A stretch of DNA of 64,000 bases from Thermoanaerobaculia bacterium (GTDB lineage: Bacteria; Acidobacteriota; Thermoanaerobaculia; Multivoradales; Multivoraceae). The notes under the pieces are model-generated. The model saw only the letters and a program-made list of their open reading frames with translations, ran no database searches and was not told the origin of the DNA. The stretch lies in assembly GCA_963664405.1 (NCBI GenBank), contig OY761158.1, forward strand, positions 5,376,001-5,440,000, given 5' to 3'. Of this stretch, positions 59,322-64,000 are shown one piece after another (within the stretch, counting starts at the first letter, position 1; every line of letters starts with the position of its first letter). Both the position numbers and the translations under genes were made by a program.

Positions 59322-59574
59322 GCTATCTCGGTTCTACGGCATCATCATCCGAATGTACTTCGGAGATCATCCGCCGCCACACTTCCACGCGTTCTACGGA
59401 GAGTACGAGGCTCTCGTGAGGATCGAGAACCTCTCGGTGTTGGCGGGCTCGATGCCCGCGCGGGCTCTCGGTCTCGTCGTGGAATGGGCGTCGTTGCATC
59501 AAGAAGAGCTCCGTGCGGCGTGGCGGCGCGCCAGCGAGAATCAGGTACCGGGGAAGATCCAGCCCCTACCATGA
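59314..59574 (+). CDS. DUF4160 family protein (putative toxin), cassette 1
   Basis: MPELSRFYGIIIRMY..DHPPPHFHA, EWASLHQEEL..W, IQPL. Confidence 0.9.
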   Translation: MPELSRFYGIIIRMYFGDHPPPHFHAFYGEYEALVRIENLSVLAGSMPARALGLVVEWASLHQEELRAAWRRASENQVPGKIQPLP

Positions 59575-59584
59575 TCTGCCAGTT

Positions 59585-59646
59585 GCCTAACCTTGCGCTG
59601 GAGCGGACGCCCATTGCGAGCGCCGCTCAGCTTAGGACTGTTAGAT
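59585..59646 (+). other. Integron attC site 1
   Basis: R'' GCCTAAC, L'' GCTGGAG (extra G) / L' CTCAGC, R' GTTAGAT; 62 bp. Confidence 0.88.
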
Positions 59647-59863
59647 GGCCACTGAATTGAGAGGAATCAAATGATCGAGACTGCGGGGGTCGCGCTTGCG
59701 ACTCTTGTGGCCACAATCGGCCCGCTCGACGTCGCCGCCATTTTTGCCGCGCTAACAGCGGGCGCGACTCCGCAGCAGAGGCGTTCGATGGCGATTCGCG
59801 GATCAGTGATGGCTGCCGTGATTCTGGTTTCGTTCGCACTGGTCGGCGAGCTTCTCCTAGCTA

Positions 59864-61589
59864 GATCGCGTCCGGAAACGGACGAAATAGAGTGGTGTCC
59901 GGGTCTCATCGAGCTTTTTTTCGAAGCCTGTTGCGTGCGATTCCAGGTTTTCTGTACCTGGTTCGCTGGATCAGGAAGGCTCGGCTGCTTTGACGGCGTA
60001 TTGCGGGGTTGGTGCTCCGTTTCTCCAGCAGTGCTGGGGGTGAATCGAACGGTGTGCGATGCCCTATTTCAGTTGATGAGGTGCCTTGCGGTGACGAGGA
60101 GGTTGCTGGTGATCACACTCGCCCAAGCGTAGCTCTGGAAGGAAGGCCAGGATCTCCAAGTGCATCGCTTGAGTCCAAAGGCGCGTTTGAGAAAGGAGAT
60201 GATGCCTTCGATACCGGCGCGAAAGTCGCGCAGCCGCTTGTAGACCCAGGAGCTCTGGGCCATGTCACTGACCTGAAGGCCCCGGCCCTTGCTGAAGACG
60301 ACATCGTGCACGAAATAGAGTGGTGTCCCATCTGCTTGATCTCTTCGAGATTGGCTTTGGAGGCGAACCCGCCGTCGAAGGCGATCTGGCGCGGGGGTTG
60401 GCTATGGTTGGCGATGTGGCGCTGGACCATGGTCGTGGCGAGGCTGGAGTCGGGCGGGTTTCCCTGGAGGATCACGAGATCCAGGACAAGGGACGAGGAG
60501 CCGGCGGTGAGGCAGACCTTGTGGCCGTAGAGCGTTTCTCTGGCGTCTTTGCGAATGATCGCGGTGTGCTCCTCGAAGATCGAGACGATCTTCTCGCTCG
60601 CGGGGACCGTTTCGCCGTCGAGAATTCTACGGCGTGTCGGGTCGATGACCGTGGCGGTGCGCTCGAGGAAACAGTCGAGCTCCTCGAGGAGTCGACGGGC
60701 GCCGGATTCCTGGGAAGGCCCCTGCTTGGCGAGCACATTCCGGGCCGCCTTGGCTGAATCTTGGACTTTCTCGGTGATCTGGATCAGGTCGCGGTAGGGC
60801 TGGAGCCGCATATCCTTGGTGCGCGAGTCGTTGATCTTCTTGCGCCGCCTCTTGGCTTGCCGCGATCGGTCGCGGAACGAGAAGTGCTCGCTGCCCAGCA
60901 GGCCTCGCGCCCTTGCGAGCAATCGGGTAAGCACCCGAACGCAATCCCAGAGCAGCTCGGAGTCGGTCGGATGATGGATGTTGGACTCCACCACGGTGGC
61001 GTCCACCCGGACTCTGTTGCCTCGCTCCACTCCCGTGTCGAGTGCCAGGGCCACGATTCGCTTGTGAATCGCCTCCAGGGTGGCGCACGTCAGTGCCTTG
61101 ATGTTCTGGGCCAGCGTCGACTTCTTCGGCGTCCACCCGACGAGGCCGAGGCGGCAGAAGGTCCGGTAGCTACGGGAATCCTCAAGGTGGAAGGCGAGCT
61201 CCGAATAACTGAAACCGCCCATCTGCTTCACGATCAGGGCCCGGACCACCTGCTCGCCCGACATGCCTCGCGCCCCGGTGCTCTGGCCTTTGCCTCCAGC
61301 CTGTAGCTGCAGGTCTTGCCACGCAAGCTCGTAGATTCTAGGATCCCTGTCGAGGAGGCGAGAGATCGCTTCGAGTTCTTTGGCATGGTCCAGATCGAGC
61401 CACTTTTCGGTGAGATCAGGCTGAATACTGACGGCTTGTCGCATCTCGGGCTGGCTCCTTCTCGGCGTAAGCTATTTAGAATCAACGGTTTCGTCACCTA
61501 GACTCTATCAAGCTCCGCGGAGAATTACCAGCCCTGCCTCCCTCGCAAGCCACTGACGCAAAACAACTTACACGATTCCGGACGAGAAC
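59864..61589 (-). mobile_element. ISNCY-family (ISDol1-like) insertion sequence
   Basis: Imperfect IRs GATCGCGTCCGGAAACG / GTTCTCGTCCGGAATCG; 6-bp target duplication TAGCTA (59858-63, 61590-95). Confidence 0.85.
60069..61444 (-). pseudogene. ISNCY DDE transposase, frameshifted by a 14-bp insertion
   Basis: RVDATVVESNIHHPTDS, KIVSIFEEH, YGHK, FDGGFAS; C-terminus FRAGIEGIIS in another frame; removing 60313-60326 gives 454 codons. Confidence 0.87.
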
Positions 61590-61595
61590 TAGCTA

Positions 61596-61830
61596 GCGTA
61601 GGTACGTCGGGACGACTTGGAGACGGGAAGTAACGGTGCGCAGTCAGGATACTCTGTTGGCACCGCACGGGGAGAAGAAGGCCGGAAGAGCATTGGTGCT
61701 TCGTGCCCGTTAGCTAGCGTGGTCCTGGGAGCGTTGCGTAGAAGACAGTGGCGACACGAGAGATCGTGATCCCGTTTAGGAGAGTGCCAGAGTGTGCGGC
61801 TCCCACTCCTGTGCGGTTTGCGCACAAGAG
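61596..61830 (+). ncRNA. Putative IS110 bridge RNA
   Basis: Structured non-coding end with four segments matching target and donor flanks at the CT core (see findings); strand assumed. Confidence 0.6.
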
Positions 61831-61838
61831 GAGGATGT

Positions 61839-63245
61839 ATGTCTCGGAAGAAAGAGCGTCGTCGGTCGGCGGGTGATTCGAAGCGCCGTCGATCCCAGCT
61901 GCCGGCAAGCCTTGAGCAGGTCAACCTGAATGCTGCCGGGATCGATATCGGAGCGACGGAGCATTGGGTGGCGGTGCCCGAAGACCGGGATTCGCAGCCG
62001 GTTCGGAAGTTCGGAGCGTTCACGGCGGATCTGTACTCGCTGGCCGAGCATCTTCTGGCGTGTGGGATCGACACGGTGGTGATGGAGTCGACGGGTGTGT
62101 ACTGGATTCCATTGATGGAGGTGCTCGAGGAGCGGGGTTTCGAGGTGAAGTTGGTCGACCCTCATCGTCTTCGCCAGGTTCCTGGTCGCAAGAGCGACGT
62201 GCTGGATTGCCAATGGCTTCAGCAGCTGCACACCTTTGGGCTGTTGGGGGGAGCGTTTCGGCCGGACGATCAAATCTGTGTTCTGCGCAGCTACCTGCGA
62301 CAGCGCGCGATGCTGGTCTCGTACGCAGGCCAGCATATTCAACACATGCAAAAGGCGATGACCCAGATGAACATCAAACTCCAGCATGTGGTCAGCGACA
62401 TCACGGGGGCGACCGGGATGCGGATCATCCGAGCGATTCTCGAGGGTGAGCAGGATCCAAAACGATTGGCCCAGATGCGAGATGGTCGATGCAAGAACAG
62501 CGAGGCGACGATCGCCAAGGCGCTGGAAGGTCATTGGCGTGAAGAACATCTCTTCGAGCTCCGGCAGGCGGTGGAGCTTTTCGATATCTACCACCAGAAA
62601 GTCGGCGAGTGCGACCAGAAGATCGAGACCTACCTCGAAGGTTTCGAAGACCAATCGGGCGGACAAACCCCACCGAAGAAGGCCAAGGAGAAGCAGACCC
62701 GGACCGGGTTGGGCTTCGATGCGCGCTCTCATCTGTTCCGCATGACAGGGGTCGACCTCACAGCGATCGAGGGAATTCAGGCGCACACGGCACTGAAAGT
62801 CATCGGTGAGATCGGACTCGACATGACTCGATGGCCCAACTCGAAGCATTTCGCGTCGTGGCTCGGGCTCTGTCCCGGGAGCAAGATCACCGGCGGCAAG
62901 CAGCTGAGTAGTCGCTCGAAAGCCTCGGCGAATCGGGCTGCCTCCGCCCTGCGATTCGCCGCGAATGGCCTGCATAACTCGCACAGCTCTCTCGGCGCCT
63001 TTCTCCGTCGCAAGAAGGGTCAGATCGGAAGACCGGAGGCCATCACCGCAACCGCTCACAAGCTCGCACGCATCATCTACTCGATGCTCCGATACGGAAC
63101 CGAGTACGCTGCGAAGTCACAGGACTACTACGAGACCGAGTATCGAAAACGTGTCCTCAAGAACCTCAAACGCAACGCTAAACGTCTCGGCTTCTCCCTT
63201 CTGCCGCTCGATCGCGGCTCGCTACAGACAGAGGAAGTTACTTAG
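61839..63245 (+). CDS. IS110 DEDD recombinase/transposase
   Basis: GIDIG, VMESTG, KSDVLDC, FASWLGLCP, AITATAHKLA; GAGGAGG RBS; stop TAG supplied by target DNA. Confidence 0.95.
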   Translation: MSRKKERRRSAGDSKRRRSQLPASLEQVNLNAAGIDIGATEHWVAVPEDRDSQPVRKFGAFTADLYSLAEHLLACGIDTVVMESTGVYWIPLMEVLEERGFEVKLVDPHRLRQVPGRKSDVLDCQWLQQLHTFGLLGGAFRPDDQICVLRSYLRQRAMLVSYAGQHIQHMQKAMTQMNIKLQHVVSDITGATGMRIIRAILEGEQDPKRLAQMRDGRCKNSEATIAKALEGHWREEHLFELRQAVELFDIYHQKVGECDQKIETYLEGFEDQSGGQTPPKKAKEKQTRTGLGFDARSHLFRMTGVDLTAIEGIQAHTALKVIGEIGLDMTRWPNSKHFASWLGLCPGSKITGGKQLSSRSKASANRAASALRFAANGLHNSHSSLGAFLRRKKGQIGRPEAITATAHKLARIIYSMLRYGTEYAAKSQDYYETEYRKRVLKNLKRNAKRLGFSLLPLDRGSLQTEEVT

Positions 63246-63705
63246 GAGTCTCGGAATATCCCTCGCTGCATTGAGGACAGCTGGAGGAATATTGCTCTTG
63301 CTAATAGGTATAGACATGGTATTCGCGCGTTCGTCCGGCGGAACTTCTACCACGGACGATGAGGAGCGGGAGGCCGCATCGAAGCAGGACATATCCGTGT
63401 TTCCTCTAGCAACACCGTTGATAGCCGGCCCTGGCGCCATGGGTGCCGCCATACTTCTCATGGCGAATGCCGAAGGAGAGCTAGCGCGGCAGATGATCGT
63501 AATTGCTTCCATTCTCGCGATCGTTCTCCTCACATTCGCTGCGTTAATGGTCGCAAGCAGGCTTCAACGGCGTCTCGGGATCACCGGGATGCATGTGGTG
63601 ACGCGGGTCTTTGGCGTCCTGCTGTCTGCGCTGGCCGTTCAGTTTATGTTTGACGGCATTGAGCAAAGCGGACTGCTTGGAAAATGAGTGCCTTGCCGAA
63701 CCACG

Positions 63706-63762
63706 ATCTAACCCGGCGCTGGTGGCGACGCGCCAAGCGCGCGCCTCAGCTCAGCGTTATAC
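63706..63762 (+). other. Integron attC site 2
   Basis: R'' ATCTAAC (exact complement of the upstream R' GTTAGAT), GCTGGTG/CTCAGC, R' GTTATAC; 57 bp. Confidence 0.85.
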
Positions 63763-63819
63763 GGTAATGGCGAGGCTAGGATTCCCGGCGTCGTGGCGTC
63801 GCTTCTGAGCGTAATAGCC

Positions 63820-64000
63820 ATGAATCAGATCTTTCGGTTCTCCAGCTCGGTCAAGCGGGATCCAGCCATCGATGCCTGGATGAAGGAGCATTCGGGTGAG
63901 TTGGGGTCTATCGCGCGGGACTGGTTTGACGTCATCCGCGAGCGTGGAGACGATGTTCGAGAACTCTTGCATGACGGCCATCCGACCGCGTGCGTAGCGG
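63820..64000 (+). CDS. DUF1801-like protein (cassette 3; 3' truncated by window)
   Basis: Read manually: MNQIFRFSSSVKRDPAIDAWMKEHSGELGSIARDWFDVIRERGDDVRELLHDGHPTACV. Confidence 0.75.
   Translation, partial: MNQIFRFSSSVKRDPAIDAWMKEHSGELGSIARDWFDVIRERGDDVRELLHDGHPTACVA

Follow-up and report, generated by a model that had tools for sequence, protein, structure and literature searches.

The mechanism by which insertion sequences of the IS110 family read DNA with an RNA is currently argued from a few elements (IS621, IS622, ISCro4, ISEc21, ISEc11 and CazIS110-1), of which IS621, with its bridge RNA, was reportedly studied by Hiraizumi and colleagues in 2024. The locus described here raises the question of which parts of its donor and target DNA a distant member of this family reads. 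It lies in a Thermoanaerobaculia bacterium, in a stretch of 64,000 nucleotides on contig OY761158.1 (assembly GCA_963664405.1, positions 5,376,001 to 5,440,000), hereafter the window, where positions 61591-63240 form an IS110-family insertion sequence with a CT core on each side, inside a gene for a MarC-family membrane protein. An earlier note on the window had proposed that the non-coding end of the element encodes a bridge RNA with four guides, in the order left donor (LD), left target (LT), right donor (RD) and right target (RT), and with a polarity opposite to that in IS621. Our analysis makes it likely that the 248-nucleotide left end encodes a structured guide RNA of the bridge RNA or seekRNA kind on the plus strand, with two guides, one for each of the right arms.

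The argument starts from the ends of the element. Its three copies in the genome (the window copy, L002 and L003) are 100% identical; all of them start with (C/G)T-AGCTAGCGT and end with GTTA-CT-TAGGAG, and their flanks diverge outside. In the window, the left junction dinucleotide, a copy of the CT core, occupies positions 61589-61590 on the plus strand, as do all features below unless stated otherwise; it is CT in the window copy and in L002, and GT in L003. Identity among the copies begins at the left terminus, the RD arm AGCTAGCGT at 61591-61599. The right terminus, the LD arm GAAGTTA, was placed together with the core CT at 63234-63242 by the same comparison, and is followed at 63243-63248 by the right target flank, the RT arm TAGGAG, which is the same at all three insertions and belongs to the host gene according to the MarC alignment.

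Removal of the element together with one CT restores the reading frame and the spacing of MarC, and in an alignment with eight distant MarC homologs the N- and C-terminal halves abut without a gap in all eight. Since such a fit requires TAGGAG to belong to the host and AGCTAGCGT to the element, this spacing rules out the other boundaries considered, in which TAGGAG would be part of the element or AGCTAGCGT part of the host. Empty sites at the DNA level are out of reach, because the genomes of the relatives are too distant, with MarC about 37% identical at best. The MarC gene is split into two parts, 59671-59858 and 63244-63687, by a nested insertion: an IS5-like element with DUF772 and DDE_Tnp_1 domains (59865-61588, minus strand), which is separate from the RNA system, occupies the left junction of the IS110 element. 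Its excision together with its CTAG duplication leaves CTTCTC-CT-AGCTAGCGT. This excision and the eight MarC alignments confirm the target that the earlier note had reconstructed, CTTCTC-CT-TAGGAG, and the ends common to the three identical copies likewise confirm its donor junction, GAAGTTA-CT-AGCTAGCGT.

The transposase gene (61839-63245) encodes an IS110-family DEDD transposase of 468 amino acids, with matches above the curated cut-offs to PF01548 (DEDD_Tnp_IS110; residues 33-178, E 1.1e-16) and PF02371 (Transposase_20; residues 307-375, E 1.2e-11). The reading frame extends to the right junction, where its stop codon TAG comes from the target flank, and the left end (61591-61838) is non-coding over 248 nucleotides. 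In line with the IS110 family, the DEDD domain is combined with Transposase_20, the element has no terminal inverted repeats and there is no target duplication beyond the core. A scan of a genome collection returned 10 related loci with 39-62% protein identity. The subfamily is common: a metagenome scan with an alignment of seven proteins gave at least 583 relatives, the best 80 of which were used, and relatives are also present on 419 plasmid records. The sole relative of the transposase in the PDB is the IS621 transposase (E 5e-5) and, on these similarities, the subfamily is a distant branch of the IS110 family. The covariation described below rests on about 90 related elements, with subset sizes that differ by test.

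Two motifs recur upstream of the transposase in the homologs, GCCCG-N11-GGTC and ATCCCG-U-N8. In the window, the RD guide at 61710-61720 (UU followed by AGCUAGCGU) is identical to the core and the left terminus, so that the terminus AGCTAGCGT recurs inside the guide at 61712-20. Across 75 loci, the 8-mer within the first motif recurs 95-175 nucleotides upstream, at the left tip of the element, exactly in 39 cases and with one mismatch in another 26, and comprises 64 distinct sequences; shuffled pairings gave 0.6 exact matches (maximum 3) and 4.9 with at most one mismatch (maximum 11). An earlier set of 41 loci, collected by regular expression, had given 23 exact matches and 12 with one mismatch.

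The RT guide at 61775-61783 (U, UUAGGAG and A) is identical to the second base of the core and the right target flank. Here, in an alignment built with a covariance model, the exact 7-mer is found again past the transposase gene at 59 of 64 loci, in 26 distinct versions (shuffled pairings 1.8, maximum 7), and in 57 of the 59 cases it is preceded by the GT[TC]NN of the right end. In the earlier regular-expression set, 43 of 49 loci had the exact match directly after the right end (..GTTNC), compared with 1.2 (maximum 5) in 200 shuffles, and one of the 43 (L027) is a second copy of the RNA rather than a junction. At the right junction, 67 of 76 loci have the dinucleotide CT; at the left junction, 24 of 65 have it, and T is the second base in 41 of 65. 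With covariation so far above that of shuffled pairings, the proposal that the RD and RT segments act as guides is borne out: judged by covariation, they are genuine guides that vary together with the left tip and the right target flank.

In the window, a palindrome within the RD word leaves the sense of this guide ambiguous. Where the homologs have words without a palindrome, the guide has the sequence of the top strand and not that of its complement. Because of this identity, both guides would pair with the bottom strand, with the 5' end of the guide at the core. In IS621, by comparison, the 5' guide of each loop is described as pairing with the bottom strand on the left and the 3' guide with the top strand on the right (text of PMC11208160). 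The opposite polarity proposed for the right-hand guides thus holds up in the non-palindromic homologs.

Both guides are embedded in a conserved domain of the plus strand (about 61662-61817), which is closed by the helix P-long and consists of two homologous modules in tandem, each with a stem-loop that reads UGG(U)G[C/A] ... [G/U]CCCG and, directly after it, a segment of variable sequence. In P-long, the 5' strand (61662-61672) pairs with 61807-61817, and the helix score over 35 loci is 9.31 within a locus versus 6.21 (sd 0.22) between loci. In the first module, the helix P_RD pairs GGCCG at 61680-61684 with UGGUC at 61720-24, and the stem-loop SL_RD (UGG(U)GC, loop, GCCCG; 61694-61709) stands directly 5' of the RD guide. 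The RT module is enclosed by the helix P_B, in which UGGGAGC at 61726-61732 pairs with GCUCCCA at 61799-61805; it has many different sequences among the loci and scores 6.56 within versus 5.23 (sd 0.17) between them. The stem-loop SL_RT (UGG(C)GA, hairpin, AUCCCG; 61749-61774), homologous to SL_RD, stands directly 5' of the RT guide. The 3' strands of P_B (61799-805) and P-long (61807-17), jointly 61799-61817, probably form the 3' end of the RNA domain.

The fold was assessed in two alignments, A4 (30 sequences, MAFFT) and A5 (89 sequences aligned by a covariance model, to which this alignment is fitted and toward which it hence leans). The 19 pairs of the three local helices are paired in 96.7% of cases in A4, compared with 86.0% (sd 0.9) in column shuffles and 34-46% in slid registers, and in A5 they are paired in 97.9%, with compensatory changes at 13 of the 19 pairs. 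Helix by helix, the values in A4 and A5 are 98.0% and 99.3% for P_RD, which shows compensatory changes and G-U pairs, 98.7% and 99.5% for SL_RD, and 94.8% and 96.2% for SL_RT, where 6 of 9 pairs in A4 and 7 of 9 in A5 have compensatory changes. The stem-loops change, for example, from GGUGA/UCCC to GGUGG/CCCC and from GGUGC/GCCC to GAUGC/GCUC. The closing U-G pair of SL_RD is kept in 29 of 30 sequences in A4 and 85 of 89 in A5. Three nearly invariant wobble pairs in the fold (one G-U and two U-G; 29/30, 29/30 and 30/30) are possible on the plus strand only. An RNA from the opposite strand, for which the helix scores are nearly as good, is excluded by these pairs. RNAalifold on the full-length MAFFT alignment A2 returned the three local helices only; P_B and P-long were found locus by locus.

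A covariance model of the fold, R1, matches 86 of 91 sources of the subfamily, the other five being truncated or partial loci. Apart from three extra matches from neighbouring copies, these matches share the strand of the transposase and are upstream of it. Second copies of the RNA motif (L027:2361-2487, L053:1713-1838 and, on the minus strand, L052:299-410) point to neighbouring or tandem elements of the same subfamily. In the genome of the window, the motif is confined to the three copies of the element and R1 matches none of six other IS110-family loci. The IS110 DEDD domain has 15 matches in the same genome, which include several other IS110-family elements (for example at C1:2264036, 5488691, 6027034 and 3366397). 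The covarying fold and its strand-specific wobble pairs agree with the idea that the non-coding end encodes a structured guide RNA.

How many guides does this RNA carry? The model of the earlier note has a single RNA with guides in the order LD, LT, RD and RT, in which alternative ACGGG/CCCGU conformers present the two integrated junctions. All four matches on which it was built are indeed there, namely AGTAAC at 61629-34, gGGAGAAG at 61670-77, tTAGCTAGCGT at 61710-20 and tTTAGGAG at 61775-82, and so are the CCCG directly 5' of both right-hand matches and the ACGGG that precedes or overlaps both left-hand ones. The candidate LT guide at 61670-61677 matches the left target flank by Watson-Crick pairing at 7 of 8 positions and at all 8 if one wobble is counted. 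It is anchored at the core like the LD complement, and we roughly estimate that a 7-mer match within about 100 nucleotides arises by chance in 1-3% of cases.

The homologs do not share this match, however. At the homologous position, 28 homologs have on average 2.14 of 8 matching bases, compared with 1.99 (sd 0.21) in shuffled pairings, and 5 at most. The segment overlaps P-long and a conserved purine linker: bases 61670-72 belong to the covarying helix and the remainder to the linker before GGCCG. The match also fits just one of the three insertion sites in this genome, which have the left flanks CTTCTC, ATGAGC and TGTTCA, two of them unrelated to the segment, and share the right flank TAGGAG. 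Sister elements whose guides are the same (L055, L059 and L060; L031 and L033) likewise have unrelated left flanks. In a coupling scan of columns against positions over 65 loci, the best LT diagonal reached 7.0, compared with 29.2 for the RD positive control. A search for an LT guide as the longest complementary or identical runs in the 5' and 3' parts of the left end gave no positionally consistent signal. The zone between the RT guide and P_B scored 3.69 versus 3.46 (38 of 500 shuffles at least as high), and this excess disappeared without L033 and L029. The sharing of k-mers between the left ends and 40 nucleotides of left flank is modestly raised in both senses, possibly owing to genome composition. 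Judged by these comparisons, the left flanks are essentially unconstrained across the subfamily and no segment specifies the left target flank, and the candidate at 61670-61677 is probably not a guide.

The conformer switch fares no better. Each CCCG pairs with the UGG(U)G upstream of it, with compensatory changes, and not with ACGGG, of which the second copy lies within the closing helix and the first upstream of the probable start of the RNA. L085 does have a core-anchored antisense LT match of 10 nucleotides in its left end, but at a different position. Two of the four proposed guides are inside the conserved RNA, and the order LD, LT, RD, RT is preserved across the subfamily as LD complement, RD and RT, with LT unsupported. 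We therefore consider it very unlikely that the RNA has four guides arranged in this way. The guide-target covariation that the earlier note had suggested looking for in homologs is present for RD, RT and the LD complement, and missing for LT.

Some of the left flanks have features of their own. Those of L019, L102 and L071 resemble the right end of the element plus the core, as in a junction or a tandem arrangement, and that of L104 repeats the RD word. These could be insertions beside remnants of earlier copies.

The left donor arm presents a different picture. The LD complement, AGTAAC at 61629-61634, corresponds to the right terminus and the core (GTTA-CT) read as reverse complement. Among the homologs, the last seven nucleotides of the right end (five nucleotides and both core bases) recur as reverse complement in the 5' part of the left end at 37 of 64 loci, compared with 1.7 (maximum 6) in shuffled pairings and with three of 64 for the sense form, and the mean run length is 6.86 versus 5.04 (sd 0.19). 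The core bases take part in this covariation, with AT matched by AT in L032 and L034 and CC by GG in L031. The result is an inverse copy of the right terminus, 6-11 nucleotides long, which in the window lies 38 nucleotides inside the left end, 28 nucleotides upstream of P-long and before a -10-like box. A hairpin of the left tip with the LD complement was rejected as weak (4.86 versus 4.14). The LD guide of the earlier note is accordingly right in that this segment covaries with the right terminus and the core, and questionable in that it lies upstream of the likely start of the RNA. From its position and covariation, it could be either a left-donor guide on a transcript that is extended in the 5' direction or a subterminal inverted repeat that acts at the level of the DNA.

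A -10-like box (GATACT / TACTCT; 61648-61655), possibly an internal promoter, is located about 8 nucleotides before the closing helix, and a TAnnnT box starts 9-17 nucleotides before P-long in 16 of 29 loci, compared with a background of 6%. Eight loci (L047, L049, L050, L055, L058, L059, L060 and L071) have no TAnnnT box, and share a conserved GTGGCA about 20 nucleotides before P-long; this clade may use a different type of promoter. Two marine-sediment studies with libraries labelled as RNA each yielded a 161-nucleotide contig, which covers 61666-61824 with 6 differences and has no loose ends, and a DNA run reads on across the ends of the contig. This is a weak hint in agreement with an RNA of about 156 nucleotides bounded by P-long. 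For the organisms A or B, no sequencing run on record as RNA contains the stretch; the runs that do contain it (X4-X9) are of no recorded kind, runs X10-X15 have next to none of its words, and in runs X1-X3 the uncovered parts of the stretch carry no information.

If the transcript instead began close to the left tip, say at a promoter rebuilt in the circle junction, the RNA would have three guides, with the LD complement pairing with the top strand. The covariation of the LD complement, both core bases included, speaks for such an arrangement, as does a fragment in run X3 that begins at 61640, and for IS621 the text of PMC11208160 describes an RNA driven by a promoter that is reconstituted across the right and left ends (RE-LE). 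Conversely, the distance between the LD complement and the RD guide varies widely among the homologs (67-147 nucleotides), the -10-like box, like the closing helix, points to a shorter RNA, the 161-nucleotide contigs begin at 61666 and the hairpin of the tip with the LD complement is as weak as stated above. We regard a third guide as possible, at rather less than even odds. The same holds for the simplest form of the RNA, without any left-arm guides, in which two duplicated stem-loop modules would carry one guide each that pairs with the bottom strand; it is a reading that we put forward tentatively.

A further option is that the RNA is a canonical bridge RNA as in IS621, with left guides on the 5' side of either loop that went unnoticed for being short, discontinuous or tolerant of mismatches. 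Unpaired 5' sides of about 8 and 15 nucleotides would leave room for them, the slightly raised k-mer sharing of left flanks with left ends could be their trace, and the right donor guide of IS621 is described as pairing discontiguously (text of PMC11208160). Yet the 5' sides of both loops gave no LD or LT signal in either sense over 29-35 loci, the sense of the right guides is wrong for the scheme of IS621, no LT diagonal stands out in the coupling scan and the k-mer excess may reflect shared composition. A canonical RNA with hidden left guides is in our view unlikely.

Several observations weigh against an RNA with two right-arm guides that starts close to P-long. A scan for consensus sequences found no full sigma-70 promoter in 61500-61900. 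The 161-nucleotide contigs stem from a relative that is about 94-96% alike, from libraries for which the RNA label is partly a guess, and the fragment in run X3 (61640-61771) extends beyond the proposed start on its upstream side. Folded as a single sequence, the left end is not unusually stable (z = -1.14), and a scan of 59500-64000 against Rfam, with E up to 1, returned no matching family. As regards the left target flank, a 31-nucleotide zone ending just inside the 5' strand of P-long has antisense runs of 4.31 versus 3.75 (sd 0.15), a value reached in none of 500 shuffles. This excess is driven by L085, whose core-anchored 10-nucleotide match is at the -10-like box, and by L019, where LT resembles LD. 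L033 has a sense match of 11 nucleotides to its left flank directly 3' of the RT guide, and left guides of 3-4 nucleotides, short or discontinuous, would escape these tests. Finally, the RD and LD matches are also repeats in the DNA, and covariation alone cannot separate pairing between RNA and DNA from repeats that are read by a protein.

The last point leads to the possibility that there is no guide RNA at all, and that the transposase itself reads the repeats and the preferred target word as signals in the DNA. In favor of this, the termini recur as a direct repeat in the RD guide and as an inverted repeat in the LD complement, and the RNA of this organism is a prediction from sequence. A target word that is read by a protein would not, however, covary with an internal segment across 26 different words, and the fold that contains the segments shows compensatory changes as well as G-U pairs possible on one strand only. 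Related families use RNAs of this kind, as shown experimentally according to the texts of PMC11208160 and PMC11187229. An explanation by DNA signals alone therefore seems extremely improbable to us.

We return to the favored reading, an RNA with two right-arm guides, and consider how it would work. The RNA would pair with the bottom strands of two right arms, one of the donor and one of the target, and this pairing would bring donor and target together for the DEDD recombinase. The top strands of both right arms would be displaced and free for exchange, a strand-exchange geometry that we infer only. The left donor arm could be recognized via the LD complement, as RNA or as DNA, and the left target arm would barely be read. 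As no segment was found for the left target flank, the choice of target would rest on the T of the core and 6-9 nucleotides to its right, often a word like a Shine-Dalgarno sequence.

The right-flank words in the subfamily (TAGGAG, TGGGAG, CAGGAG, TGGAAG, TAGGAA and others) do look similar to Shine-Dalgarno sequences. The copy L003 is inserted about 10 nucleotides upstream of the start codon of a gene, the product of which begins like a Ser/Thr kinase as judged by eye. A preference for ribosome-binding sites is a feature of IS900-type elements.

Much of this agrees with IS621. As there, a non-coding RNA lies in a long left end, on the strand of the transposase and beside a recombinase with DEDD and Transposase_20 domains; the RNA is conserved and structured, with two guide-bearing loops of which one reads the donor and the other the target, the RD and RT guides covary with their DNA and reach into the CT core, and there is no target duplication beyond this core. 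The loop scheme is where the two part ways, in the sense of the guides, the left guides and the order of the modules. Here a 3' guide with the sequence of the top strand is all that is detectable in each loop; a left-target guide was not found and the left flanks are unconstrained; and the donor module precedes the target module, whereas the target loop comes first in IS621. The proteins are barely alignable (E 5e-5) and differ in length, with 468 amino acids here and 328 in the solved chain.

The comparison with the seekRNAs of IS1111 and ISEc21 is similarly mixed. The RNA again comes from a non-coding region and matches its target over short stretches. As an inverse copy of a terminus, the LD complement might be a counterpart of the subterminal inverted repeats (7-17 bp) of IS1111 elements. 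Those repeats lie much nearer to the end of the element than the LD complement does here. In the IS1111 seekRNA, a match to the target's top strand is found 5' of a match to the bottom strand, and the two overlap at the point of insertion (text of PMC11187229). The order here, with the LD complement (top) before the RD and RT guides (bottom), is likewise top-then-bottom, although for the donor elements only, and in place of two overlapping target matches, one bottom-strand match (RT) was found. Long and short forms of seekRNAs have also been described (text of PMC11187229). By the position of its non-coding region, which precedes the transposase as in IS110-type elements rather than following it downstream, the element is not of the IS1111 type. 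The transposases are 395-455 amino acids long in IS110-proper and 330-350 in IS1111 according to the same text (PMC11187229), and the 468 amino acids here are just above the former range and well above the latter. By transposase size and the upstream non-coding region, the element fits the IS110-proper class.

According to the published text, many RNAs of the IS110 family deviate structurally from that of IS621 and still covary with target and donor, and this subfamily may be among the deviant RNA models published there. Such RNAs are nevertheless described as having target- and donor-binding loops with left and right target guides (LTG/RTG) and left and right donor guides (LDG/RDG). The published text mentions neither a reversed sense of the right guides nor recognition of the right arms only, which figures or supplements may show (PMC11208160, PMC11187229, 10.64898/2026.10.21.760802). 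Displaced top strands on the two right arms would be in keeping with the ideas of top-strand transfer and half-sites that have been discussed for IS621 and CazIS110-1 in the texts of 10.64898/2026.08.31.748434 and 10.1101/2025.10.25.684509. One-sided target logos are common and have been attributed to wrongly recorded ends (text of PMC11187229), whereas the ends behind the one-sided logo described here were checked against an alignment of the uninterrupted gene. The suggestion of the earlier note that this is a distinct bridge-RNA architecture is well founded in the sense of a real variant that departs from IS621 in guide sense, guide set and module order.

Some further observations concern the stem-loops and the neighbouring IS5-like element. 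The 5' strand of the guide-presenting stem-loops reads UUGGUGA, or UGAUGC/GUGAUGA in some loci (L017, L019, L090 and L099), which we take to resemble the C-box word. A kinship of IS110 with Nop5 has been proposed (10.1101/2024.06.21.599552, in the text available).

The IS5-like element, of which the genome holds four copies, sits in CTAGCTAG at the left junction of the IS110 element. The window copy measures 1724 bp, 14 bp more than the 1710 bp of the other three, and has two open reading frames (60113-61444 and 60069-60311) in place of an intact transposase frame. A 19-nucleotide word from its left end (59882-59900) occurs again inside its transposase gene (60310-60328). This repeat is probably the additional DNA by which the window copy lost its intact frame. 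At a second place, L002/L006 (G000:C1:406516-409885), copies of the two elements again lie side by side, in the reverse order; there the right junction CT-TAGGAG of the IS110 element directly abuts the left end of the IS5-like element, which does not have the CTAG duplication of the other copies.

Bridge RNAs and seekRNAs are under development as programmable recombination tools, and the two guide positions together with the fold provide a concrete construct that can be tested. If guides for the right arms only, of opposite sense, are indeed used in this subfamily, the geometry between guide and strand is not fixed in the IS110 family, and the one-sided target logos noted in surveys across ISfinder need not stem from wrongly recorded ends but can be genuine. 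The subfamily would then be a natural system for single-strand transfer or recombination with half a match, and the recognition of half-sites may be the rule. Should the RNA have no left-arm guides whatsoever, synapsis and strand transfer would differ from the four-guide scheme of IS621, for example by transfer of the displaced top strand only, and these elements would need just 7-10 nucleotides on one side to choose their targets.

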